This document shows, piece by piece, positions 535 through 20,000 of a DNA stretch of 20,000 nucleotides. The position numbers and the translations under genes are program-made. Source of the DNA: Scenedesmus sp. PABB004 (lineage: Eukaryota); contig JABVCE010000022.1 of the NCBI GenBank assembly GCA_014905635.1, positions 671,690 through 691,689 of the forward strand, given 5' to 3'. A model generated the notes under the pieces. The model saw only the letters and a program-made list of their open reading frames with translations. It ran no database searches and was not told the origin of the DNA. The stretch's first letter is position 1. Every line of letters starts with the position of its first letter.

Positions 535-3500
535 ATGGACCGCGGGCGCGGCCGCGGCGGCTACGGCGGCGGCCCGGGGCGCGGCGAGGGCGGTGCGCGG
601 CGCGCTCGCGCGGGGCGCATCCCGCTCGCCTCTCCGTGGCACGGAGGGGCGTGGGCCGTCCCAGGCCGGCGCTGCCGCGCCCCGACCGTGCCCCGAGACG
701 GCCCAGGCGGCGCGCGCGCGTCGCGGCGGCCCGCGCGCCCCGATCTCGGCGCTGAGCAGCGGCGCCGCCGCTGCTGTCGCGCGCAGGCTACGGCGGTGGC
801 TACGGCGGCCCGCCCGGCGGCCGCGGCGGTGGCAGAGGTGAGCGAGGCGCCTGGGACGGGGACGCGCAGCGCCGTGGCGCGGCGGGCAGGGGCGAACTGG
901 CGCGCGGCGCGCGGCGCGCCGCTCAGCAGCAAGCTGGCGCCCGCGCGGCGCGCCCCGCGCGCAGGCTACGAGGGCGGCGGCGGCCGCGGCGGCTACGGCG
1001 GCAGCGGCGGCGGCGGCTACGAGGGCGGCGGGGGCCGCGGCGGCGGCTACGAGGGCGGCCGCGGCGGCGGCTACGAGGGCGGCGGGGCCGCGGCGGCGGC
1101 TACGAGGGCGGCGGGGGCGCGGCGGCGGCTACGAGGGCGGCCGCGGCGGCGGCTACGAGGGCGGCGGGGGCCGCGGCGGCGGCTACGAGGGCGGCGGCGG
1201 CCGCGGCGGCGGCGGCTACGGCGGCGGCGGCCGCGGCGGAGGTGCGGCGCGCGGCAGAGCCGGTGGCGGTGGCGGCGGCGGCGGCGGCGACGGCGCGGGG
1301 GCGGCCGCGCCAGGCCGCTGCGCCCGGCCCCACGCTGCGCCCGCCGCCCCCGCTCCCCCCTGCGCGCACAGGCGGCTACGAGGGCGGCCGCGGCGGTGAG
1401 CGGCCGCAGCGCGCTGCGGGGCCCGCCAGCTTGCCGCCAGCCTGCCTGGCGCGGCCAGAGCCGCCGACCCGCGCTGGCCCGCTGCCACCCCCTCCTCTCT
1501 CTCCCCCCCTCCGCAGGCGGCGGCTACGGCGGCGGCGGCGGCGGCGACTATGGTGGCGGCCGGGGCGGCGGCGGCCGCGGCGACTTTGGCGGCGGCGGCC
1601 GGGGCGGCGGGCGCGACTTTGGCGGCGGCGGCCGGGGCGGCGGGCGCGACTTTGGCGGCGGCGGCCGCGGCGGCGGGCGCGACTTTGGCGGCGGCCGCGG
1701 CCGCGGCGGCGGCCGCGTGTCGGGCGGCGACATGCAGCTGCCCCTCGACCGCGCGCTGTCGGAGCTCTCGGCCGCGTTCTCGCGCGTCAGCGTGCGCGGC
1801 CCCGAGGTCGTGCGCTGCGCGCGCGGCAGCGTCGTGCCGACGCGCGCGCTGCGCTCGCGCGCGGGCGGCGAGGGCACCGCGGGCACGTCCATCGCGGTGC
1901 GCGCCAACCACTTTTCGCTGAGCCTCAACGCCAGCCAGGCCTTCCACTACGACGTCAGCATCGACCGCCTGCTCAGCGAGGAGGAGGCGGCGCGCGCCTC
2001 GCGCCGCAAGGCGCCCGCGCGCGCGGGTGAGGCCCGCCGGCCTGGCGTCCGTGGGAGGGGGGGGGGCGCACGCCCCGAGGGGCGCGCAGGCCCGCCTGCG
2101 GCGCGCGCCGAGCCGCGCCCCGCCGCCCCGCCCCGCGCCGGCCGCCGCCGCGGCGCGCCCCGCAGGCCCCGACCGCGGGCTGCCGCGCCCGATGGTGCGG
2201 CGCGTGCTGCTCGCGCTGAGCGCGCAGGAGGGCTGGGGCAGCGTCGGGTGGGCGAGCGACTGGGGCAAGAACATCTACGCGCCGTCCGCCTTCCTCGGCG
2301 TCGGCGGCGGCGAGCCGCGGCTCTACACCGTGCGCACCCAGTTCACCGCGCCCGACGGCAGCGCCGTGGACAAGACCTGGACGGTCGCGATCAAGTACGC
2401 CGCGACGGTCGACCTCAGCGCGCTGTCCGCCTACATGGCCGGCACCGAGGCGGACGAGGAGATGCCGCGCGCGGCCATCCAGGTGCTCGAGGTCGTCATG
2501 CGCTCCGGCGTCAGCGGTGAGACCCACACCCGCGCCGCGCGCGCAGCGCGGCGCGCCGGCCGCCTCGCCGCCGGGCCTGCGCAGGCGCCGACGCCCGCCC
2601 GCTGCCCGCCCGCCTCGCGCCCGCCGCGCGCGCCGCGCGGTGCGCTGCAGCGCGTGAGAACGCGCTGGTGATCGGGTCGAGCGTGTTCTTCCACGTCCCG
2701 CGCGACCCCAACCTCTACATGGCCCTCCCCGGCGGCGCCGAGGCGTGGGCGGGGTACCGCCAGGCGGTCAAGCCGTGCCAGGGCGGGCTGACGCTCAACA
2801 TCGACCTCGCCGCGACCGCCTTTCTCACCAGCGGCCCGCTCCTGCGCGTCATCTGCAGCGTGCTCAACCTGCGCAACCCCGGCGAGCTCATCGGCCCGCA
2901 AGGCCTGCCGCCGCGCGCGATGCGCCAGCTCAAGGAGACCGTGCGCGGCGTGCGGGTGCGCCCCGCGCGCGCCCGTTCCTGCGCGCCCGCTCGAGCCCCT
3001 CGCGCCCGCGCGCCCGTGCTGCGCGCCGGTGCTGCCGCCGCCGACGCGGCGCCGCCTGCCCGCCGCGGTCAGGTCGCGTACCACTGCCCCACGGGCGTCA
3101 TCCGCAACAAGCTCGTGCGCGAGATCGGCAGCCGCGGCGCGGCGCAGACGATGTTCAAGCTCGACGACGGCCGCGAGGTGCCGCGCGCGCCGCGCCGCTC
3201 GCAGCGCGCCCCCCGCTCACGCGCGCCCCCGTCCGCGCACCGCCCGCGCCGCCGCAGGTGAGCGTGGCGGCCTACTTTTCTGTCACGTACAAGCTGCAGC
3301 TCCAGTTCCCCGGCCTGCCCCCGCTCAACGTGTCGAGCCAGCCCGGGCGCAAGGTCTGGGTGCCCATGGAGCTCTGCCAGTGAGGCGGCGCGCGCGCGGC
3401 GGCGGGAGGCGCGGCGCGGCGGGAGGGCTGCGGCGGCCGGGCGACGCGCGCGCGGCGGCGCGGCCGTGCGGGCGGGCGCCGCCGCGCCGCGCCGACGCCG

Positions 3501-6025
3501 CCGCGCGCGCCGCCGCGCAGCGTCGTCGCGGGGCAGCGCCGGCGCATGCTGAACGAGGCGCAGACGACGGGCATGCTGCGCTTTGCGGGGCTGCGCCCCG
3601 ACGAGCGCGGGGCGTACCTCACGCAGGTCATCTCGCGCGACGACCTCGGCGGCTTCAACAGCGGTGAGCCACCGCGCCCCCCGCCCGCCCGCCGCGCCGC
3701 GCGGCCGGCCGCGCCGTGGGGCACGCCGCGCTCACGCCGCTGCCGCCGTGCCGCGCGCGCGCGCGCGCCAGACCCCGCGGTGCGCGCGTTTGGCATCCAG
3801 GTCGAGACGGCGATGAAGACGGTGCAGGCGCGCGTGCTCAACCCGCCCCTGCTCGCGTACGGCAAGCCCGAGGCGCTCACGCCCGGCACGCGGGTGCGCC
3901 GCGCCGCCGCCTGTGTGCGGCCGCCTCGCCACCCGCGCTGCTGCGCGCGCCGCTCGCGCCGCCGCCCTCGCCGCCGCCCGCGCCGCCCGGGTCGCCGCCC
4001 GCGCCGCCGCTCCGCCGACGCCGCCCCGCGCCGCTGCGTGCGGCAGGGGTCGTGGAACCTGCGCGAGGTGCGCTTCCCTGCGGGCGTGGTCATCAGCAGC
4101 TGGGCGTTCTGCAGCCTTGTCGACCCGCAGTACCTCGTGCCGGACGGCGAGACGGGGACGCAGACCTTCCTGCGCGACCTCGTGCGCATGTGCAACAGCA
4201 CCGGCGTCGAGTGCCCGCCGCCGGCTATGGGCCCCTGGATCCCGCGCGCCGACCCCGAGAGCCTCATCCGCGCCGCCGCCGAGGCCGCGACGGCGCACTT
4301 TGGCAGCAAGTGCGGCGCGGCGCGGCGCGGCGCGCGCGCGGCGGGGCGCCGACGCCCGCGCGGCGCGCGGCGGGGCGCCGACGCCCGCGCGGCGCGCGGC
4401 GCGGCCGGCGCGCAGGTGCCAGATGGTGCTGGTGCTGCTTGAGCGCAAGCAGACGAGCGGGTCGAGCCCCTACGCGTTTGTGAAGCAGGCGGGCGACAGC
4501 GTGATGGGCCTGCGCACACAGTGCTTTGCCGCCGACAAGGCGGGCGTGGGCCGCAACGCGCGCCCCCCGCGCGGGCGCCAGCAGTACTGCGCCAACCTCG
4601 CCATGAAGGCGCGCGCGCGCGCGCCGCGGGGGCAGGGGCGCTGCGGGCACCGGGGGCGGCGCGCGCGGCAGCAGACGGCTGCTGCGCCTGGCGCTCACCG
4701 CGCGCGCATGCGGGGCGCGCCGCCCGCCGCCAGATCAACACCAAGATGGGCGGCGTCAACGTCAAGCTCGTCGACGACCCCGCCGCCGTGAGCGCCCGCG
4801 CCCCGCTCGCACGCGCCGGGCAGCGCGCGCCGCGCGCCGCCGCGCGCCTCCGCGCCTCCGCTCCGCCGCGCGCCCACGCCCCGCGCGCGCCGCCGCGGCC
4901 GCGCGCCGCAGCCCAAGGCGGTGCCCGTGGTGGGCACTGTGCCGTTCATGATCTTTGGCGCCGACGTGACGCACCCGACCTCGTTCAACCCCGACGACCC
5001 CTCCATCGCCGCCGTGTGCGCGAGCTACGACCGCACGCTCGGGCGCTACATGAGCCGCGTGCTGCGCCAGGCGCGGCCGCGCCGCCGCGCGCGCCCCGCG
5101 CGCGCCGCCCGGCCCGCCGCGCGCCGCCCGCCCGGCCCGCCCCGCGCGCGCCCGGCGCTCCTCCCCCGAGCGCCGCCCGCCCCGCCCCGCCCCGTGCTTT
5201 GCAGGGCCACCGGCAGGAGGTGATCGGCGCGCTGAAGGACGTCGTCGCCGACATGCTCAAGGAGTTTCACCGCCGCAACCGGGGCCACAAGCCCGAGGCG
5301 ATCATCTACTACCGCGACGGCGTCGCCGACAGCCAGTTCCCGGCCGTGCTGGAGCACGAGTACACCGCGTTCCGCCAGGCGCGCCCGCACGCGCAGCCGC
5401 GCGCGCAGCCACGCGCGCGCGCGCGCGCGGCCGCGCTGCGCACGACGCACGCGCAACGCGCGCGCCCGCGCCGCTCGGCCGCGCCGCGCCCGCGCCGCTG
5501 ACCGCCCCCCGCCGCGCCCGCGCCCCATGCGCGCAGGCGTGCTACAGCCTGGAGGAGGGCTACTGCCCGCCCATCACGTTTGTGGTGGTGCAGAAGCGCC
5601 ACAACACGCGGCTCTTCCCCGCCGACCGCGCGGGCGCGGACAACAGCGGCAACTGCCTGCCCGGCACGGTCGTGGACAGCGGCATCTGCCACCCCACGCA
5701 GTTTGACTTTTACCTCAACAGCCACGCCGGCCTGCAGGGCCACAACAAGCCCGCGCACTACCACGTGCTGGTCGACGAGAACGGCTTCAGCGCCGACGCG
5801 CTGCAGCTCTTCACCTACTGGCAGTGCTACCTCTACTGCCGCTGCACGCGCAGCGTGAGCTACGTCCCCGCCGCCTACTACGCCCACCTCGCCGCGTTCC
5901 GCGGCCGCCTTATGAAGCGCGAGGGCGAGGAGGGCAGCGTCGTGTCGAGCGGCAGCGGCGAGCGCGCGCTCGAGGTGCTGCCGATCCGGGACGACTACGC
6001 CAACCAGTGCATGTTCTTCGCATGA
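535..6025 (+). CDS. AGO: Argonaute (eukaryotic AGO clade), 17 exons, ~1133 aa if the two single-base deletions in exon 3 are corrected
   Basis: Exons read by hand: 535-592, 787-837, 965-1241, 1372-1395, 1517-2026, 2166-2516, 2651-2955, 3073-3177, 3258-3379, 3521-3663, 3772-3893, 4047-4309, 4416-4608, 4734-4787, 4912-5070, 5205-5378, 5537-6025. Motifs: N domain (VRANHF..FHYDVSI), L1 ([18 protein letters not shown]), PAZ ([25 protein letters not shown]), MID (YAFVK..TQC, NLAMKINTKMGG), PIWI ([67 protein letters not shown]), C-terminal MFFA*. Confidence 0.96.
965..1716 (+). repeat. Coding tandem repeats of the AGO glycine/arginine-rich N-terminus ([14 protein letters not shown] units in exons 3-4; [11 protein letters not shown] x4 in exon 5)
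   Basis: Repeated ggctacgagggcggc...ggccgcggcggc units at 965-1241 and gactttggcggcggcggccggggcggcgggcgc-type units at ~1582-1716. Confidence 0.9.
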
Positions 6026-6375
6026 GCGCGGCGGCGGCGCCGCGGCGGCAGCGGGATGCGTCGCGGGCGGGGCAGGGCGGGGCGGGGCGGGACGGGCCGC
6101 GCCGTGTGTGCGGCCGGCGCCCGCGCGGGGAGGGAGCAGGGGACGCACAAGCCGGAGCCCGGGGCGGGGGGACACTGACCAAGCCTGCACCACTCACGCC
6201 CCCTGGTGAGGCGAGCACTTTTTCACGCAGCACACGCAGCCTCACTCCCCACTGCCACTCCACTCCCGCCGGCCGGCGGCGGGCGCCGCGCGGCCGGGCG
6301 CCTTCAAACGCACGCAGCGGGCGGGGACCGGGTCGGGGGGGGGGGGGGGGGTCGGGCGTACACCTAAACTAGAGT

Positions 6376-6380
6376 TGTAA
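6376..6380 (+). promoter_or_regulatory. Probable polyadenylation signal (TGTAA) of the AGO gene
   Basis: TGTAA, the canonical chlorophyte poly(A) signal, in a rare AT-rich patch (cctaaactagagttgtaa) about 350 nt after the AGO stop codon. Confidence 0.6.
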
Positions 6381-6504
6381 CGCCACCAAGTTGCGGCTCA
6401 GGCTCAGTGGCTGGTCGGCGCCCGCCCGGCAGCAGCCCCCCGGGCCCAGCCGCCCTCGCCTGCGCCGCCGGGCGGCCCTGGTGCGGGTTGACCGGGCTCC
6501 GCAG

Positions 6505-7975
6505 TCGCCGCGCTGTTGCCAGCGCACGCCGTCTTCGGCGGCGCCGAGGACGACGGCGCCGGCGCGGCGGCTGCTGGCATCAACACGGGCGACCCCGCCG
6601 CCGCTGTGGCGGAGCTGCCCGAGGACGTGGAGCAGGCCAAGGGTGCGCTGAGCGCGCACGCGCCCCGGCACCGAGCACAGCACGCGCTATGCGCGGCCAG
6701 CCGCCCCGGCCCCCGCGCCCGCACACCGCGCCCGACCCCCCGCACGCGCGCCCGGCCGCGTGCAGCCGAGGTGCTGCCTGGCAGCGACGCGGAGATCACC
6801 GACTGGATGGCCGACACGCTTGACGCCGCAGCCGGCGCCGCCGCGGAGGGCGGGGGCGGCAGTGGCGGTGGCGTTGGCGGGCTGCGGTTCATCAACTTCA
6901 ACACCGCCTCGACCTACAACCCAGGGCTGGGCTTTTTCGTCGCGCTCGACGGCGCGGCGCGGCTCGCACGCCTGCTGCCCGCGGCGGGCCTGGTGTCGCT
7001 GAGCCCGCCGGGCAGCCTCTACGCCGACACGCCGGTCGTGGACGACGTGAAGGTCACGCTCGACTTTGACCTCTCCGCGCCCCTCGCAGCGCCGGTGGGG
7101 GGTTAGGCGCCCTTCTCGCGGCGCCGCCCGCGCAGGCCCCGCCGCCGCAGCGCGCGCCGCCCCACCCCTCGCCCCCCTCGCCCCCTCGCCCCCCGGCCCC
7201 GGGCCCCCCGCGCCGCCCCGCTGCCGCTGTCAGTGCTGGCTGGACGGCTACCAGCAGTTTGCCGGCGTCCCCTACGCGCCCAGCCTGGTCGCCATCATCG
7301 ACGTTCGCGCGGTGCTCCCAGGCAGCGCCAGCAGCGCGCCCGTGGGCTGGGCGTGCCTGCCCGTGTTTGAGCGCGCCGGGCGCCACGTCGCGAGCGGGAC
7401 GCACCACCTGCCCCTCTTCCAGGGCGTGCCCAGCGCGCAGCTGCTCGCCGACCTGGCAGCCGGCGACCCCGACGAGGCCATGGCCGCCGCCATCCGGGTG
7501 CGCCGGCGCAGCTGCCCGCGCGCCGGGCGCCCGCGCGCGCGCGGCGCGCGCCACCCCCGCGGTGACCTCTGCCGCCGCCGCCGCCGCCGCCGCCGCTGCC
7601 GCGCGCGGCGCGCAGGCGGGGCGCGTGCGCCCGAGCCTGGAGTGCTCCAGCGTGCTGGCGCGGCTCATGTGCGGCACGCGCCAGGGGCAGCTCGAGGCGC
7701 CGGCCTGGAGCCTGCCGCTGGCGGAGCTGCGGCTGCCGCGCTACGTGGCGAGCGAGCTGGGGCCGCGCTTTGTGGGCGAGGCGCGCAAGGCCATGCGCAA
7801 CAAGACCTACGCGCAGGCCAAGCCCCCGGCCCTGAGCGACGCGGCGTGGGTCGACAGCATCGCCGACACGCTCATCAAGGTCGCCGGCCTCGACGCGGCG
7901 CTGCCGGGCGGCGGCGCGGACAGCGGCGACGAGGGCGAGGGCGAGGGCGGGCGCGAGGCAGGCGGCGCGGCCTAG
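6505..7975 (+). CDS. Uncharacterised protein with a C2-like beta-sandwich region; 5' end missing or unresolved (possible gene fragment), ~362 aa visible
   Basis: Phase-consistent GT-AG exons 6505(or 6523)-6642, 6766-7094, 7234-7497, 7616-7975 with coding-like codon use. Peptide: ..YNPGLGFFVALDG..SLSPPGSLY..DDVKVTLDFD..CWLDGYQQF..LVAIIDVR..VGWACLPVFE..VASGTHHLPLFQG..SVLARL. The GW..LPVF..SG...LPLF pattern recalls C2-type domains (inference). There is an in-frame TGA at 6489 and no ATG until 6807. Confidence 0.7.
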
Positions 7976-8681
7976 GCGGCACCTGCGACCGGTGACTCGG
8001 CGGCAAACGTGCGGCGGCGCCCGCGTCCCTGCGTCCGCGCTGTGCACGGCGGCTGCGGCGCCGCCTCCTCGAGCGAGCTCGCGCGGCTGCGCGTGCGACC
8101 ACCGCTTGCCGTCGGGTTGGTTCGTTTACTCCGTAAACTGTGTGTTGCTAAAAACTTGACTGACGCACAGGCGCCTTTGCCTGCCTGGTATGCGCACAGG
8201 CGCTGCAAGTTCCGGGGACACACACGCTCGTCGGCCGTGGCAGGGCCGCTCGCGCTCATGCGTTGAGGGTGCGAGCCTGGGGGCCGGCCCCGTTCGCTGC
8301 TGCGCGCAGGCGCAGCAGCCGGGGCCGGCGCGCCGCCGCCCACGGGCGAGGCGGCGCGCACCGGGCAAGTGCTCAGTGCGGGCGCGCCTCTGCGCGAATC
8401 CGGATGCGGCCACCGGGCGCGCAGGCAGCTAAGCTATGTCGTCAGCCGCGGCAGCTTGCAGTGGTGCATCCCTGCTGCGCCGCGCGGCGGCGCGCCGCCG
8501 CGCGCGCTGCAGCCAACAAGAGCCCCCGACCGCACACAAAACAGGACACGACGCGCCACCCGAGGCAGGCCGGCGGCGTGAGATGCACGCCGCGCACGCC
8601 CAGCGGGCCTCAACACGCAACCAGCAACTAAGAGTCATTCTTTGGGGGCGGGGGGCCGGCGTCGCGCCGGCGCGGCACACG

Positions 8682-10966: not shown

Positions 10967-12037
10967 TCACTCCGACGTGACGTCGATGGCCGGCCCCTCG
11001 CCGGCCTGCTGCTGCCGCTGCTGTGCGCCGCGGCGCCAGCTGCCCTCGCCGGCGGCGAGGCGGCCGGGGCCGCCCGGCTGCCGGCCCGGCGCCGGCTTGC
11101 GGGCGCGAAGCTTCGCGGCCGCCACGGCCTGCCCGTCGCCCCGGGGCACGCCGGCTGCGGCCTCCGCTGCGTCGCCGGTCGGCTGCTGCGGCTTGGGGTC
11201 GGGGCTGGCCGCGTCGTCGGCGCCCGCGCGCTCGGCGCCGTGCGCGCCGTCGCCGCTGGTGGCCGCCGAGCCGCTGGCGCCGCCGTAGGGCATGAGCACC
11301 TCCTCCAGCCGCGCCGGCGGCGCACCCGCGCCACACCCCCACCCGGCGCCCGGGCTGATCAGCTGGCCCACGCTCTTGAGCGTGCCCAGGAACAGCTTGG
11401 AGCCGGCCTCGCCCGCCCCCGCCGGCGCCGGGGGCGGCGCCGCCTGCTGCGCTTGCTGCCGCTGGGGCCGCGCCGCCGTCTGCCCCGTCGCGCGCGCAAA
11501 CGCCGCCTTGCCCCGCTCGACTGCGCTCCCCACGGCGCTGCCCAGCATCGCCTCCACCTGCCGCGCAACGTTCGGCCTGACGGCCTCCGCGCGCGCGCGC
11601 TGCGCCGCCTGCGCGTCGCGCCCCTGTGCCAGCGCGGCGCGCGGCGGCGCTGGCCGCGGCGCCAGCTGCTCGCCGCCGCGCGGTGCGCCCCCGCTGCTGT
11701 CGTCGCTGCCGCTGCTCAGCAGGTCGCACGTCTCCGGGGGCGGCCTGCCCGCCTGCTGTGGGCTCAGCTCCAGCTCCAGCTGGGAGCGCCCGCCCTCGCC
11801 CGCGCTGCCGCCGCCCTCGCTGGCGCTCTGCGCGGCCTCCTCCTCCAAGCAGCGCCGCGCCAGCTGCGCCTGCTCCTCCTCTGTGGGGGGCCGCGGCGCC
11901 TCGCCGGGCCGGAGCACGACGCCGCGCGCTTGCGCCGGCCGCTCCGGCCCGCCCTCGCCGCCGCGCGCCCCAGCTGCTGCGCCGCCGCCGCGCCGCCTGC
12001 CCTGGCGGCCCTGCTGCTGCTGCTGCTGCTGCTGTTG

Positions 12038-12084
<47 letters not shown>

Positions 12085-13407
12085 GCTGGCCCCGCTCGCG
12101 CTGCTCCATGTGCGCGCCCAGGACCTGCTCGAGCCCCCGCTGGGCGACGTCCTTGATCGCCGCCTGCCCGCCGCGAGCGGGTCAGCAGTGTCGCGCGGCG
12201 CGGCGTGAGAGGGCGGCGGCAGCAGCGCAGAGCTCGCAGCAGGCAGCCCTGCTGGCTTGGGAGCAGCCCCGCGCAGGCGTGCAGGGCAGCAAGCTGCGTG
12301 CGGCGCGGGCGCGCGCCGCTCACCAGCAGTGGGCGCAGCAGCTCCTCACCCAGCTCCTCGTCCAGCGCGGGCAGCTGCGCGGTGATGAGGGCCAGCATGC
12401 GCCGCGCCTCACCCGGCGGCACCGCCGCCGTGCCGACCTTGCTGGCCAGGTCGCTGCCCAGGTGCGCAAACGTGCTCTCCAGGCCTGCGCCGGCGCAGCG
12501 TGCGGCGTGCGCGGCAGATGCGTCGGGGCCCGCAGCGCCCCCGCGGCGGCGGCGGCTGCGCCTGTGGCGGCCACCTTTGCGCCGGGGCAAGCGTCCCCAT
12601 GACTCACGCTTGCTCAGGTCCGTCACTGCGTGCGGGTTGTCGCCAGCCGCCGCAGCCAGCAGCCACAGCGCCTTCTCCCTGTGGTCGTCGGCCGCCGCCG
12701 CGCCTGGGCTGCAGTCGTCGTCGCTGCACAGGTCGACCGTGTCAGCACCAGGCCCGCCCTGCTCGTCCATATCCATGGCCTGCGGCTGCTGCGCCTGCGG
12801 CGGCGAGGCCGGCGGCGGCGCGTCCACATCCATGGCCTCGGCCTGCGTTGCGTCGGCGCAAACAGGCGGGGGCGCACAGCCTTAGCGGCAGCTGTCGCTG
12901 CAGGACTGTGATGCCAGACAGCTGCGTGGCTGGACACCCCACCCCACCCCCCGGGCTGGGCCGCCCACCTGGTGCGTGCAGCGCGCCGGCTGCGCCTGGC
13001 CGCCCTGGCGTGCTGCTGCCGGCCCCTCCTCGGCTGCGGACGTGTCCTGGTCGCTGGTGCACGCCGACTCGCCCGCGTCATCAAAGGTCCTCAGCGGAGC
13101 CCGCTGCCCTGCTGGCACCTTGACGCCGCACCCGGACGGGCCCTGCTGCTGCTCCTGCTGCTGCTCCTGCTGCTGCGGCTGCGGCTGCTGCTGCTGCTGC
13201 TGCTGCCGCTGCCGCGCCTGTCGCTTGCCGGGCGGCTGCTCCTGGGCGCGGTCGTCGCTGTCGCTGTCGCTGCACCACTCGGGCACGCCCGGGTGCAGCC
13301 GCTTGACGGCCACGCTCTGGGGCTCCCAGTTTTCGTCGTCGTCCAGCAGCTTTCCCCCGCCGCCTGCCACGCCGGCAGCTGCGGGCTGCTGGTGCTGGTG
13401 CTGCTGT

Positions 13408-13452
<45 letters not shown>

Positions 13453-16400
13453 AGCTGCTGCTGGTGCTCCTGTCGCGCGAGCTCCGCCTGGGTTGGTCGC
13501 CGCGCGCCGGCGGCGCCGCGCTTGCGCTGCGCCAGGTGCTGCCGGTGCTGCTGCAGCGCCTCGTGCACACGCGGCCAGTAGTCGGCAGGCTCCACGTACG
13601 CGTACACGGGGCTCAGCCTGCGGCGCCACACGCGGCGGGGGCGCGCCGCGGCTCAGGGGCGGCGCGGCGCGCAGCGGCGCAGCGCCAGCGCCGGCGCGTG
13701 CCGCGCGGGGCGCCTCACTCTCCGGGCTCCTTTTGCTGTTCCACGCGCGCGCGCGCGGCGTCCACGGCCGCGTGGTAGTCGGCCACCTCCGCCACCGCCG
13801 CGGCGACGGCCGTGGCGTGCTTGTCGGGCGCCTGGTCGACCATGAGCTGCAGCAGCTCCGCCCGCAGGCGCGCGCGCAGGCACGACGCGACGGCAGGGTC
13901 AAACCACGCCTCGCTCAGCAGCAGCGGCTGGTGCGCGCAGAGGGCGCCTGCGGCGGCGGCGGCGGCGGCACGCGCAGGCGCGGCGGGGGCGTCGCGGCGC
14001 GGCGGGGCCGTGGAGCGAGCGCAGTGCCGCTGGTCCGAGGAGCACCCGCGCTGAGCGGCAGCGCCGGGGCGTCGGCGGGGATGCGCACCCGTGCCCTTCC
14101 TGTTGGCCTCCACCGCGGCGATGCTGATGACGCGCGGCGCGGCGGCGGCGAAGAAGTTGGCATACGTCAGCACAAACAGCCCGCAGTCGCAGTGGTTGTC
14201 CTGCTTGGGCAGCCACGCCAGGCGCTTGAACGGCAGCGCCTGCGCGGCCGCGCGGCGGGGGGAGGGCGTCGCGGCAGCCGGCGGCCAGGGGCCGCGTGCG
14301 GCGGCGCTGCGCGCGCAGCGAGCGGTGAGCGCAGCGCGCGCAGCGCGACGCACCTGGCCGCTCAAGTCGAGCGCCTCTGGCGCTGCCGCCTGCGCGCCGT
14401 CCGCTTGCGCCGGCGCGCGCTCCCGCTCCGCGCGCGCCTTCCACTCCTGCTCCAGGTACGTCCGCAGCGCAGGGGCGACCAGCCGGCTGCCGTTGTTGTG
14501 GCCGCCTGGCGCGTGCGCGCGGCGCGGGGGGGGGGGGGGGGGGCTCAAAGCGCGCACGAACCAGCCACCACACCCCCCCCCCCCAGCGCCCCCCGTCCCG
14601 CGCGCGAGAGTTGAGGCGCCGCACCCGCCATGCTGTCCAGGTGCAGGATGCAGGGCGTCGCCGCCGGCGCTGCGTCGCAGGCGGTCCCCGGCTGCCCCGC
14701 CGTCGTCGCCGCCTGGCGCGCGATGGCTGCCGCGCCCGCCGGCGTGCGGGCCGCGCCGCCCGTCGCGCCGGCGCCGAGCAGGCGCGGGTGGCAGACGATG
14801 GCGAGGCTCCAGTGCAGCGCGTCGTGGATGGGCACGACCAGGAAGTCTTTGCCAAAGATGTCCACGCCCTGCGCCGCACGCGGGCGGCGGGCAGCGCGGG
14901 CAGTGGGCGCGCCGGGCGCAGGCGCGCGCGCCGCTGCCGTGCCGCGCGCGCGCCACCCCGCCGCCCCCGCCGCGGCGCGCGCCTTGGTCCACGACTTGAC
15001 GCGCGCGTGGCTGCGCTGCGCGGCGGCGGCCTTGCCGGGCTTGGCGGCGCCCGTGTCGCGCTCGGTGAGCTTTTTGAAGAAGAAGGAGTTGAAAAAGTGC
15101 CACCGCCCCGCCTCGCCCGCCGGCAGCGAGCTCTCCAGGCGCCTGCGCGCAGCGGCGGGGCCCTGTGCACGCGCGCGCGCGTGCAATGGCGCGCCGCGCC
15201 GCGCCGCGCCGCGCGCGCCGGGCCCGCCCGCTGCGCCCCTGCCCTCCCCCCCCCCCTCACTTGAGCGCGTAGTCGATGACCGTGTCGTTCAGGAACTCGT
15301 CCGGGTCGAGGCGGGCGAGGTCGTCCGGCGTCACGCGCACAGCGCCGCGGCCGCCGCCGGTCGGGAACAGCGCCGCCAGGCCCTGCGGCGCCGGCGCGGT
15401 ACGTGGGCGCGGGCAGGCACGTGGCGAGGCGCCAACGTGGCACGCTGCGCGGCGGCACGCGGCGCGCGGGCGTGCACCGCAAACTTGATGGCCGCGCCGG
15501 GGCCGATGTCGACGCTGATGCGCGCGCTGCGCCGCCGCGCCGCGCCGTCCTCCTGCTGCGCCAGCTCGGGCGCGGCGCCGTCGTCGCCGTCGTCGTCGCT
15601 GTCGCCGATGGTGATGGGCGTGTCCTGCGTGTCGCGCCGCGCCGCCTCAGCGCGCCGCGCCCAGCCCCGCGCTTGCGGCGCGCCGCGGCGCACGCCCACC
15701 TTGCTGCCGTGCCTGCTCGACCGCGCAGCGGCGCTGCCACGCTTGCTGGCGCCCCCAGCTGCGCCGCCACCCACGCGCGCCGGGGCCTGCGCGGGCACCT
15801 TGTCCGAGCGCAGCGGGGCGGCCTGCGGGGGTGCAGCGGGCACGCCCCGTGTGTGCAAGAGCGCTCGAGCAGCGCCCGCCCGTGATTGCGTCGGGCCGCC
15901 GCACCGCTGCTCTCACCTGCACGCGCCCCGGCGGCACGCTGCACTTGCCGCAGACCTTGCCATGCGCGTGCGCGATGCTGCTCGGCGGCAGGGGGCCCCC
16001 GCACTTGCTGCACTTGGCCGCCACGCTCCTGCGCAGCAGGCGCGGCCGCAGCCGCTCAGACGCGGGGTGGGGCGGCTGCGCGCTGTTGCAGCACAGGCCG
16101 CGGTGCGCAGCGGCACGCGCCCCGCAGCTCACCAGCCCTCCGTGCCGGCGCCGGCGCTGCTCAGGCCGGCAGGCCCCTTGAGCGGCTGGGAGGGCGTCAG
16201 CATCAGCTTTGGCCCCCACTGCTGCTGCTGCTGCAGCGGCAGCTCGGCCTTGTACTTGGCCACAGCCGTTTGGTGCTTGGGCGGCTCCTTGTACTGGTGC
16301 TGCTCGTACACGCCTGCGCGGCGCGGCAGCAGAGGTGTGTGAGGGCGCGCAAGCAAAGGCGGCGCGCCGGCGCGCGAGCGCTGCGGCGGCGGCGTGCCCC

Positions 16401-17290
16401 CCCCCCCCCCTCCCAAGCTGCCACGCACTCCGCTCGCGCGCCGTCGGCGCCGCCGGCGGCCCCAGCGCATGCGGGTAGTCCAGCGCCACGCCGCGCCCCA
16501 CTGGCGCGCCCCGCACCGCCGGCGCCATCGCCGCCGCCTGGCGGCTGCTGTTGGCGCCGCGCGGGGGTTGTGGGCGCCGCGGCCCTGCGAGTGACGTGCG
16601 CGGGCGAGCGCCGTGAGCGCTGCGAGGCCAGGCCCAGCGGGGCGAGCCGCGCACGCGGTCCGCGCCAGGCCGCGCCACAGCCACCACGGCACCCACTTGG
16701 CCTTGGCGAAACCACCCCGCAGGACCGACTGGTGCGTGCCCAGGGTGCTGCGCACCGCCCGAGGGCGCCAGCAGCTGGTCCGCCTGCTGCTGCTGCCTCT
16801 GCTGCTGCTGCTGCTGCTGCTGCGGCGGGCGCGCACGTGCGGCGCGCGCCAGGTTCAGTCTGTGGGACGGCGGCGCGCGAAGCCCGCGCGCCGGCCCAGT
16901 GGGGGCGCTGCGGCTGCCGCCCACCTGTATCAAGGCCTTGCCGCGCTCCGCGCGCTGGCCCAGGATGACTGCCGCGCGAATGCTGGTGATCATGGCGCTG
17001 AGCTTGGTCTCGTTCTTGTTGTCGAGGATGCCCGCCAGCGAGTTGCGGTTGCTGGCCAGCTTGCTCTGCAGGTCCTGGAGGGTGGGAGACACCCTGCGGG
17101 CCTTCTCGGCCAGCGCCTCCAGGTCGGCCTCGCTCAGGTCGGTCAGGTCCCGCTCGCCCGGCAGCGGCGCGGGGTCCCTGGGGTCCGCCTTGAGCGCCCG
17201 CATCGCCTGCGCAGCTGGATCCATGGCGCCTGCCCCCCCGAAGTCTGCGCAGAGGTGCTCATACGCCGGGCTGCGCCGCGGCTGCGCCAT
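10967..17290 (-). CDS. SUMO (ubiquitin-like) protease, peptidase C48 family, OTS1/ULP1c-d-like; 17 exons, ~1503 aa
   Basis: Phase-consistent exons (minus strand): 17290-16925, 16819-16693, 16584-16429, 16313-16133, 16028-15917, 15822-15700, 15624-15478, 15382-15261, 15142-14983, 14868-14625, 14505-14354, 14239-14089, 13947-13719, 13617-12969, 12842-12608, 12484-12324, 12163-10967. Catalytic domain: [59 protein letters not shown] (His), ILHLDS (Asp), PKQDNHCDCGLFVL (Gln/Cys), WFDPAVASCLR. Terminal exons are less certain than the core. Confidence 0.9.
12011..12083 (-). repeat. (CAG)n microsatellite encoding a >20-residue polyglutamine tract in the SUMO protease C-terminal region
   Basis: A (ctg)n run on the + strand with two ttg interruptions, in frame with the last exon. 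Further polyQ tracts lie at ~13143-13205, ~13385-13462 and ~16785-16822. Confidence 0.9.
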
Positions 17291-17628
17291 GCGGCGCGCC
17301 GGCGTGCCGCCGCTGCTGCAGCGCGCCCCGCGGGCCGCGCCGCATCACAGGCCGGCCGCCCGCCGGCGAGGTCGAAGCGGGAGAGGGCGCGGGCGTGGGC
17401 CCGTGCGGCGTCGGGCGAGCGCCGGGGCGCGGGTCGGGCGCAGCAGCACAGCAGCACGAGCCTGATGCCGCGTCGCTGTCGCCGTGCGCCTGAGCGCCGC
17501 ACGCGCGCGGCAGGCGCTGAGCCGCCTGTTAGTGCGGCGGGGCGTGGCTGGAATGGGGCGGGGCGCGCGAGGGGGCGAGCGGCGTCGGCTGCAGGCGGCG
17601 TGCGTTTCAGTCGCCCGACGCTGCGCCC

Positions 17629-17668
<40 letters not shown>

Positions 17669-17716
17669 CCGCCGCTGACACGCCGGCGCCTCCCCGCTGC
17701 GGCCGCCCGCCTCGCG

Positions 17717-19721
17717 TCAGACCGCCGCCGCCTCGGCGCGCGCGGGCAGGCCGTCGACCTGGCGCGCCGCCGCCGCCGCGGCGGTGAGGGCGCGGATGTC
17801 GCGGCACGCGGCGCCGCCCTGGACGAGCAGGTGGCGGCCGAAGCGCAGCGCGCGGCGCTCGCACGCGGCGCGCGCGTCGTCGCTGGCGATGCTGTCCATG
17901 TCGGCCGTGTGCGCGATGCCAACGAGGCGGCGGATGATGAACGCGCCCGCAAAGCCCACGGCGTCGGCAAAGAGCTCGGCCAGCAGCGCTGACTGGCAGG
18001 CCGCGAGCGCGGCGCGGCCGTTGGCGGCGGCGCTGCCCAGCAGCGCCGGCGGGCAGAGGTCGCCGCCGGCGTCCGCCTTGGCCGTCCAGAGCTCCAGGAA
18101 CCTGCGGCGCGCGCGAGGCGCTGAGCGCCAGGCAGGGCGGGCGGGCCCGCCCCCCTCGGCGCCCCCGCTGGCCGGGCCACGCCGTGCGCCGCACCGCGCG
18201 GTGAAGGTGTCCCACAGCTCGGCGATGCAGTCCAGCAGCCACGCGCGCTGCGCCGCCCTGCTGGCCGCGCCCGGCGCGGCCTCGTGGCCGTCGCTGGCGA
18301 AGAAGGCGATGAGCAGCTCGGCCGTGATCTTGGCGGGGTCAAACGCCAGCGGGCCCATGAACGCAAACTCGGGGTCGATCACCTTGCTGGCCTCGCCGGT
18401 CACCTGTGAGCGGCGCGCGCGCGGCGGCCCTCGGCGGCGGGGGCGGCGCGCGCGACGGGCCCGCCGCGCGGCGGGCCGCGTCGGCGGCGGCGCACCATGA
18501 TGCTGCCCGTGTGCAGGTCGCCGTGGACGAGGGCGTCTGCGTTGCAGCAGAACTTGCGCTTGAGCGCGGTCACGGCGGCCTTGGCCTCCGCGTCGCCGCG
18601 CAGCGCGGCCGCGTCGGCGTCGAGGTGGGGGCTGGTCCAGCGGTTGTGGTGCGAGTCGGTGTAGGGGTCTGTGAAGATGACCTGCTCGGTCAGCGCACAG
18701 AGGTCCGGGTTTGTGAACCGCACCACCAGCTCCCTGAAGCCGCGCGAGTCGAGGGCGAGCAGGCTGGTGTTGAAGAGCGTGTCGGCGAGGAAGCGGCCCG
18801 TGTGCCGCCCGACGGCGGGGAAGGTGCGGCCCGCCACGATCGCGTGGCGCAGGATGACGGCGGGCGCGCCCAGCAGCTCCATGACCACCACCGCGGCGGC
18901 GGGGTCGTACTGGTACACCTGCCGCGCGCGTGCGCGCGTGTGTGTGTGTGTGGGGGGGGGGCATGTCAGCGCGCGCCGCCGCGGGCGCGCGTGGGTGTGG
19001 GCGGGGCAGGGCGGGGCGGGGCGGCGGGCCGCAGCCGCGCCGACCTCGGGCACGTGGTCGGGGCAGAGCTTGTGCTCCAGCTGCAGCGCCTCCGCCTCGA
19101 TGCGCGCGCGGTCCTGGCTCAGCGGCCAGCCCTCGCCCACGCAGCGCACGTACGGCAGCGCCTGCTTCACGCACACGCCCCCAGCTGGGCCCTGCGAGCG
19201 CGGTTGCCGGCGGCGGCGGCATATGGTGGTGGCGCCGCCGCGAGACTGCGAGCGCGCGGGTGCGCCGGCTGGCCCCGGCCCACCAAGCCCATGCGCGCGC
19301 GAGGCGGTCACCTTGACGATGTACACAAAGTTGAGGTTGCCGTCCCCCACCTTCTCCACGGACCAGCTGCCCTCGCTGCCAGGCGGGCCCACCCGCGCCG
19401 CCAGCGCGGGCCGCGCCGCGAGGAAGGCCGCGACGCCGACGGTGCCGAGCGCGCTCACGCCGCTGCTGGCCTTGGCCGCGGGCGCGGCGCCTGGCGCGGG
19501 CGGGGGCGCGAGCTCAGCTTGGCAGCTGGGTGCAGGCGGCCGGCGGCCGGCGCCGCCAGCGCGCAGCCCCCGGCCTGCCGCAGCGCGCGCGAGCGCGGCG
19601 TACCGGCGCTGCCTGCGGGCGCCGCCGCGGCGCCGAGGCGCGCGGCGCGTGCAGCCATGAAGTCGGCCACGCGGTGCGCGCCGCTGGCGGCGTCGCGGGG
19701 CACGAGGCCCTCCTCGGTGAT
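17717..19721 (-). CDS. mtnK: 5-methylthioribose kinase (methionine salvage), 5'-truncated by the telomere; in-frame upstream remnant resembles the C-terminus of MTR-1-P isomerase
   Basis: Exons (minus strand): 19721-19604, 19490-19312, 19191-19045, 18918-18496, 18403-18195, 18101-17717. MTK motifs: VGDGNLNFVYIV, VKQALPYVRCVGEGWPL, LTEQVIFTDPY, LVHGDLHTGSIM, VIDPEFAFMGP, IIRRLVGIAH. The first in-frame ATG is at 19658 (465 aa product), but the frame stays open up to the telomere junction (ITEEGLVPRDAASGAHRVADFM). Confidence 0.93.
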
Positions 19722-19722
19722 G

Positions 19723-20000
19723 GTTTAGGATTAGGGTTAGGGTTCGGGTTAGGGTGTAGGTTTTAGTTTTTAGGTTTTAGGTTTTAGGTTTTAGGTTTTT
19801 AGGTTTTTAGGTTTTAGGTTTTAGGGTTGTAGGTTTTAGGGTTTAGTTTTAGGGTTTAGGGTTTAGGGCTTAGGGTTTAGGGTTTAGGTTTTAGGGTTAG
19901 GGTTTAGGTTTTAGGGTTTAGGGTTTAGGGTTTAGGGTTTAGGGTTTAGGGTTTAGGGTTTAGGGTTTAGGGTTTAGGGTTTAGGGTTTAGGGTTTAGGG
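19723..20000 (+). repeat. Telomeric repeat array (TTTAGGG)n, with degenerate variants at the proximal end
   Basis: The G-rich strand runs 5'->3' toward the window end. It is pure TTTAGGG after ~19925; TTAGGG, TTTTAGG, TTTTAGGG and other variants lie between 19723 and ~19925. Confidence 0.98.

Follow-up and report, generated by a model that had tools for sequence, protein, structure and literature searches.

How does a gene come to end in a telomere, and what does it lose on the way? The last part of a 20,000-nucleotide (nt) stretch of Scenedesmus sp. PABB004 DNA (contig JABVCE010000022.1, positions 671,690 to 691,689; here called the window and numbered from its first letter) raises this question. 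There a minus-strand gene for methylthioribose (MTR) kinase, MtnK, fills 17717 to 19721, and TTTAGGG-type repeats take over at the very next base. A first-pass annotation had proposed that the gene was decapitated by a chromosome break and capped with a new telomere. We find that what is missing is a whole enzyme domain, and we consider it likely that a bifunctional mtnA-mtnK gene was broken by a terminal deletion and healed by telomerase, leaving a promoterless remnant.

A kinase gene ending in telomere repeats

The gene, the junction and the repeats consist of the following parts.

19910 to 20000, plus strand: distal telomere tract, 91 bp, 13 perfect TTTAGGG units that reach the end of the window
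19722 to 19909, plus strand: proximal telomere tract, 188 bp of degenerate variant units with seven exact TTTAGGG copies
19716 to 19723, plus strand: junction with the putative telomerase seed GGTGATGG; the gene's last codon, GAT on this strand (minus-strand Ile), lies at 19719-19721
19604 to 19721, minus strand: first surviving exon, cut on its 5' side; end of the MtnA (IF-2B) domain, ~8 residues (ITEEGLVP...), the tail ...VADFMAARA and the start of an Ala-rich linker
19656 to 19658, minus strand: internal Met codon (ATG) in the conserved DFMAARA, context GACTTCATGG
19491 to 19603, minus strand: intron 1, 113 nt, GT..AG, phase 1, linking the MtnA-tail frame with the kinase frame
17717 to 19490, minus strand: MTR kinase (MtnK) half, exons 19490-19312, 19191-19045, 18918-18496, 18403-18195 and 18101-17717, with the stop TGA at 17719-17717
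Introns 2 to 5 of the kinase half, minus strand: 120, 126, 92 and 93 nt, all GT..AG

On inspection, the plus strand at the junction reads ...CTCGGTGATGG and then directly TTTAGG ATTAGGG TTAGGG... The earlier description of a telomere abutting a coding exon with no spacer or subtelomeric repeat is thus borne out: the gene extends up to 19721, the repeats run from 19722, nothing separates the two, and no subtelomeric repeat was found in the window, which carries ordinary genes (Argonaute and a Ulp1-type protease). The minus-strand frame ATC ACC GAG GAG GGC CTC GTG CCC CGC GAC is open up to 19721 and is stopped by a TAA at 19727-19725 that is of telomere origin.

From its sequence the gene is predicted to encode an MTR kinase. 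Two unspliced minus-strand open reading frames (ORFs), 18400-19776 and 17717-19513, match S-methyl-5-thioribose kinase, and both hit the family profile, NCBIfam TIGR01767, the first with 246.4 bits (E 5.3e-73, profile positions 96-242 in the best stretch) and the second with 112.4 bits (E 2.6e-32, positions 305-398 of 401). Each falls below the curated cut-off of 275 bits because each contains part of the gene. The closest solved structures are Arabidopsis MTK (2pyw, E 2e-57) and Bacillus subtilis MtnK (2olc, E 2e-36). Residues 14-248 of 2pyw align to the window, and residue 14 of its 420 falls near 19430, so the kinase core begins well downstream of the telomere. In the alignments with solved MTR kinases and with homologs, the motifs GDGNLN(F), KQALPY, HGDLHTGS and IDPEF, which we take to be the nucleotide-binding and catalytic motifs, are kept and colinear. 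A Pfam scan of three unspliced ORFs returned no family, including APH (PF01636), which does match the homologs.

Splicing gives a six-exon, 486-residue model that is free of frameshifts. Introns 2, 3 and 5 contain no stop and have lengths divisible by three, which is why the unspliced frames read through them. At columns that are invariant in at least six homologs, the model agrees at 69 of the 71 that it covers; a further 106 such columns fall in the missing part. The absence of frameshifts, the GT..AG boundaries of all five introns and the retained invariant columns uphold the earlier claim that the kinase part is intact.

The missing isomerase half

A homolog search of a large protein collection yielded 61 matches at E <= 1e-10, and the two best, P0001 and P0002, are single proteins that carry an IF-2B domain (PF01008) as well as a kinase domain (PF01636). 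The spliced model is 70.4% identical to P0001 (252/358 aligned residues), 64.6% identical to P0002 (263/407) and 43.5% identical (193/444) to the fusion P0012, whose source name is Selaginella. The isomerase-kinase architecture is found in P0001, P0005-P0007 and P0012, and PF01008 is present in 13 of the 61 homologs, either with PF01636 or alone. P0004 and P0014, which are listed as kinase-only (PF01636), begin inside the MtnA tail (...WNPSFDVTP...) and hence are cut fusions, and P0003 starts in a linker resembling that of the fusion P0007. Since such apparent stand-alone kinases start in the MtnA tail or linker, domain tables under-count the fused form. The contigs that encode these three proteins are between 1.9 and 12 kb long.

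The point of truncation can be read directly from these relatives. In P0001, residues 45-354 make up the IF-2B domain. The window frame 19724-19455 aligns to P0001 residues 346-375 with 22/30 identities (E 9e-12; ITEEGLVPRD...VADFMAARA against IITEEGGVPRD...VADFMAARA) and to P0002 with E 7e-10, and window positions 19721 to 19635 correspond, indel-free, to P0001 from residue 347 to 375. When five homologs were compared with the window by tblastn, the matches of P0001, P0002 and P0055 started exactly at 19721, and the two more distant homologs first matched in the kinase. All eight aligned homologs extend upstream of the window's first residue, seven of them by 282-346 residues and P0002, an N-terminally incomplete transcript, by 102. 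Residues 1-346 of P0001, searched by tblastn over the 20 kb, produced Ala/Gly-rich low-complexity matches alone (E >= 0.002, at most 31 bits). The first-pass annotation had held that a 5' part of the gene was removed; the upstream residues of all eight homologs are indeed absent, and the loss amounts to a whole enzyme domain of about 346 codons.

What survives of the IF-2B domain is the equivalent of P0001 residues 347-354, about eight residues, and the 19455-19724 frame gave no Pfam or NCBIfam match, PF01008 included. The body of the isomerase is absent, and the kinase, the linker and the isomerase end are colinear with the fusions. Judged by this alignment, the locus is a remnant of an MtnA-MtnK fusion (MtnAK) and not itself a fusion.

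A search for related loci with the fusion alignment kept 80 loci, of which 78 match residues 1 to about 407 or less, that is, the isomerase part. The kinase is reached by two of the 80, L001 (residues 2-712) and L073 (3-470), and none of the 80 is close enough to inform on exon structure at the breakpoint. L001, at 5947-8400 of a metagenome contig with about 60% GC, encodes the fusion as a single uninterrupted ORF of 817 amino acids. The degenerate DNA pattern I/V-T-E-x-G-x-V-P-R-D...G-x-H-x-V found no stretch in the metagenome contigs.

It could be argued that nothing has been lost and that the locus encodes an ordinary stand-alone MTR kinase whose start is ATG 19658, preceded by 63 nt of 5' untranslated region (UTR) that happens to be open. 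Stand-alone MTR kinases do exist (Arabidopsis 2pyw, B. subtilis 2olc and P0008, which is of the plant type), and open frames are cheap in this DNA: GC content is about 79% (69-85% per kb; C 40%, G 39%, T 11%, A 10%), and 33495/39270 of the 21-codon stretches in the window (85%) lack a stop. We therefore rejected the open frame as evidence of coding. The earlier statement that the frame is open right up to 19721 holds, but openness alone lies within this chance expectation. We count the 63 nt as coding on the strength of their homology with the MtnA tail of the fusion proteins: the 21 codons upstream of the ATG are colinear with that tail in P0001, P0002 and P0055, starting exactly at 19721, and 16 of the 21 residues are identical to P0001. 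The first-pass annotation had named, as an outcome that would count against truncation, orthologs beginning at ATG 19658 with the preceding 63 nt an unconserved UTR; the comparison turned out otherwise, with the 63 nt encoding the conserved end of MtnA. It follows from the alignment that the Met at 19658 is internal, as it is in the homologs, and upstream of its core the kinase frame contains no ATG. An untruncated stand-alone gene is thus highly improbable. As a separate observation on open frames, stop-free stretches of at least 130 codons number 101 over the six frames of the window and mostly overlap one another, which makes ORF lists nearly useless here.

The telomere and the breakpoint

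The array occupies 19722 to 20000 (279 bp) on the plus strand and reaches the window end. It consists of tandem TTTAGGG-type units with the G-rich strand running 5' to 3' outward, as in a terminal telomere. A two-unit probe, TTTAGGGTTTAGGG, found 20 matches with at most one mismatch, all of them in the array and on the plus strand, and none in 200 shuffles; neither CCCTAAA nor TTTAGGG occurs in the rest of the window. In a report on Auxenochlorella, TTTAGGG is called likely ancestral to green algae (PMC12636532).

The purity of the array rises outward, from degenerate units beside the gene to perfect ones at the far end. The variants of the proximal tract are TTTTAGG, TTTTTAGG, TTTTAGGG, TTAGGG, TTCGGG and CTTAGGG. 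Their arrangement is not random: runs of the 7-nt TTTTAGG and of the 8-nt TTTTTAGG and TTTTAGGG (the latter the Chlamydomonas-type unit) give way to TTTAGGG. This order points to slippage in runs of T and G, or to the spread of variant units.

The good conservation of the cut gene's relatives allows the breakpoint to be placed to within one or two bases. The codon next to ATC (Ile, 19721-19719) on the repeat side is ACC, which is already the GGT of the repeat, and the closest homologs have Ile or Val at this position. The next codon hence belongs to the repeat, and the break falls within the one or two ambiguous G residues at 19722-19723, which may belong to either the gene or the repeat. We also considered, and rejected, an intron boundary at 19721/19722: no AG acceptor was found before 19721, so the cut does not lie at the edge of an intron. 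The gene side ends in GGTGATGG, the repeats continue with TTTAGG, and the GG is common to both, in agreement with the GG/TGG seed suggested earlier. This short, TG-rich overlap was defined as a criterion after the fact, as was the class of TG-rich 8-mers ending in GG, which make up 0.5% of plus-strand positions in the window.

Unique, non-subtelomeric sequence thus adjoins the repeats midway through a conserved coding motif, and the distal sequence present in the homologs is lost. From this anatomy we infer a break that was healed by telomerase. The ancestral gene would have encoded an MTR-1-phosphate isomerase (MtnA) fused upstream of MtnK and would have been transcribed from the distal side toward the centromere. 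A chromosome break would have occurred inside the exon that codes for the final strand of the MtnA domain, the end would have been resected to the TG-rich site, and telomerase, primed on the terminal GG, would have built the new telomere. Lost distally would be about 346 MtnA codons with their introns, the promoter, the 5' UTR and everything beyond. Left over would be a promoterless piece of 2005 bp that encodes a complete, undamaged kinase and its linker. The remnant is probably young: the 63 nt remain 16/21 identical to P0001 at the residue level and the kinase is undamaged, which sets a weak bound: the event would be young when measured against the separation from the closest known relatives.

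Several points weigh against this history. In fresh healing events canonical repeats begin at the breakpoint, and here they do not run outward from the junction; the degenerate first 188 bp suggest that the end is not brand new, that telomerase was error-prone or that the consensus holds errors. The degeneracy may reflect an end that has existed for many generations, telomerase slipping in T and G runs, or a species-wide trait of chromosome ends. If the end is old, an undamaged kinase and 63 nt at 16/21 identity fit a dead remnant less well, and since stops arise rarely in GC-rich DNA, their absence is weak evidence in either direction. The junction is without read-level support, which makes a mis-join or a minority structural variant possible, and the window stops inside the array, so that the end of the molecule lies out of view.

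The last two points bear on two further explanations. In the first, the array was joined to the gene in error, through chimeric or mis-assembled reads, or the deletion is sub-clonal or confined to one haplotype, and the main genome keeps an intact fusion. Part of the degeneracy in the first 188 bp could then be consensus noise in a low-complexity tract. Five DNA-type freshwater metagenome runs each contained 0.05-0.10 of the sampled words, with no RNA run among those listed, and contigs of four of them (X1-X4) were compared with window positions 17000-19745. Contigs of 151-221 nt match the kinase exons almost exactly; these low-share freshwater pieces, as listed for the four runs, include none that bridges the junction, which says nothing for or against it. 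Joints in the metagenome contigs were set aside as noise, with short sides of 21-24 nt in a metagenome at 88% likeness. On the other side, the junction-side consensus is of coding quality to its last base, matches the homolog at 22 of 30 residues and contains no indel; the distal array, where coverage is normally poorest, is perfect, so the variants are unlike random contig-end error; and the orientation of the G strand and the GG overlap are as expected of a real healed end. We regard an artefact or a minority variant as unlikely, with a minor but appreciable probability.

The metagenome contigs also show some variation in the kinase. Near-identical contigs from the four runs differ in kinase exon 4 at 18550, 18658, 18712 and 18799, all at synonymous third positions, and each difference is seen in a single contig of low depth and could be an error.

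In the second explanation, the repeats are interstitial, inserted in the exon by telomerase at an internal break or left by an ancestral end-to-end fusion, and DNA continues beyond them, perhaps with the MtnA exons. A window that stops within the array allows for this. A gradient from degenerate proximal to perfect distal units, however, is typical of terminal and not of interstitial arrays, and no head-to-head CCCTAAA was seen in the window. The window boundary would also be unlikely to fall by chance in a short internal array (279/20000 bp, if it is only that long). We judge an interstitial array improbable, and the gene would be disrupted inside an exon in this case too. The outward G strand, the purity gradient and a consensus that stays of coding quality to its final base speak for a real terminal telomere.

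Fate of the remnant and known systems

ATG 19658 is the first minus-strand ATG below the window end, with none in the 342 nt upstream, and a kinase-only protein could start nowhere else. This ATG stands in a weak context (T at -3), it lies in a frame other than that of the kinase, and the 63 nt between the repeats and this ATG leave no visible promoter space. By the alignments above it corresponds to a conserved internal Met and not to the ancestral start. The remnant, directly under the telomere, is most likely silent and effectively a pseudogene.

With a small probability, gene fission is under way instead: the break would have split the kinase from the isomerase, and the kinase would be transcribed from or at the C-rich telomeric repeats and translated from the Met at 19658. 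The C-rich repeats would then act like the telo-box promoter elements of plants, and any transcript starting in the 342 nt upstream would have this Met as its first AUG. In plants, motifs of the telomere repeat are active in promoters (PMC3022908). Fission predicts such a pair of features: degenerate proximal repeats, which suggest that the end is not freshly made, and a kinase half without a flaw. By analogy with the stand-alone MTR kinases 2pyw and 2olc, which are functional enzymes, a kinase-only gene transcribed at the edge of a telomere is possible.

Beyond the chromosome end, the window contains two recognizable genes.

About 1900 to 6000, plus strand: Argonaute gene in intron-split frames, with the Pfam domains ArgoN, ArgoL1, PAZ, ArgoL2, ArgoMid and Piwi in order
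About 13700 to 15300, minus strand: pieces of a Ulp1-type (Peptidase_C48) protease in two frames (E 2.6e-11; E 4.9e-4, just under the Pfam cut-off)

A GGC repeat of 113 copies (973-1309) precedes the Argonaute gene. CTG/GCT arrays of 23-29 copies lie in open frames at 12011-12088, 13143-13212 and 13385-13472 and are probably homopolymeric amino-acid runs in a gene.

The arrangement shows that an ordinary gene can sit directly under a telomere, with no subtelomere, in an alga-like genome that is gene-dense and very rich in GC. If the cell has no other copy, the MTR-1-phosphate isomerase step of methionine salvage would be lost and the kinase kept, predicting a block in the pathway and accumulation of MTR-1-phosphate. 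If another copy exists, the end would be a dated marker of chromosome-end turnover. Should the remnant be expressed, a break in a chromosome would offer a way of dividing a bifunctional gene in two, with telomeric repeats as promoter. A gene caller would annotate a normal kinase from ATG 19658 and so hide the truncation.

The closest published parallel is found at chromosome ends of Plasmodium falciparum 3D7, where telomere repeats lie inside truncated var genes, subtelomeric elements are absent and seeding is at TG-rich sequence (PMC5550746). The window resembles these ends in having repeats fused into a coding region, no subtelomeric elements, a TG/G-rich junction and a truncated end gene. 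It differs in belonging to a very GC-rich, green-alga-like genome with TTTAGGG repeats, in the degeneracy of its first 188 bp, and in that the gene is metabolic and is taken as single-copy instead of being a member of a subtelomeric multigene family. The window is also known without a parental or intact allele.

Within the green algae, terminal truncation with subsequent de novo addition of a telomere has been described in mutation-accumulation lines of Chlamydomonas reinhardtii (bioRxiv 10.1101/2022.05.23.493040), and a putative de novo telomere on a chromosome fragment of Auxenochlorella (PMC12636532). These events share with the window the green-algal lineage and the loss of a terminus followed by a new telomere. 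They were shown by reads and by comparison with an ancestor, whereas the event proposed here comes from a single sequence, with homologs standing in for the ancestor.

On the side of the gene, MtnAK, a fusion of MTR-1-phosphate isomerase and MTR kinase, is reported for Tetrahymena thermophila (PMC6302742); it has the same domain order as the relatives of the window gene, isomerase then kinase, and belongs to the same pathway. Unlike MtnAK, the window has the last ~8 residues of the isomerase domain and the kinase. With the stand-alone enzymes MtnK/MTK (2pyw and 2olc) it shares the kinase from 2pyw position 14 onward and the motifs, and unlike them it has a leftover MtnA tail and linker in front, no ancestral start and 63 nt between its first ATG and the telomere. 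Telomere healing inside genes and the fused MtnAK are thus both already known; the window involves no new mechanism, and what it adds is a healing event, mapped with precision, that cuts a bifunctional metabolic gene in two.

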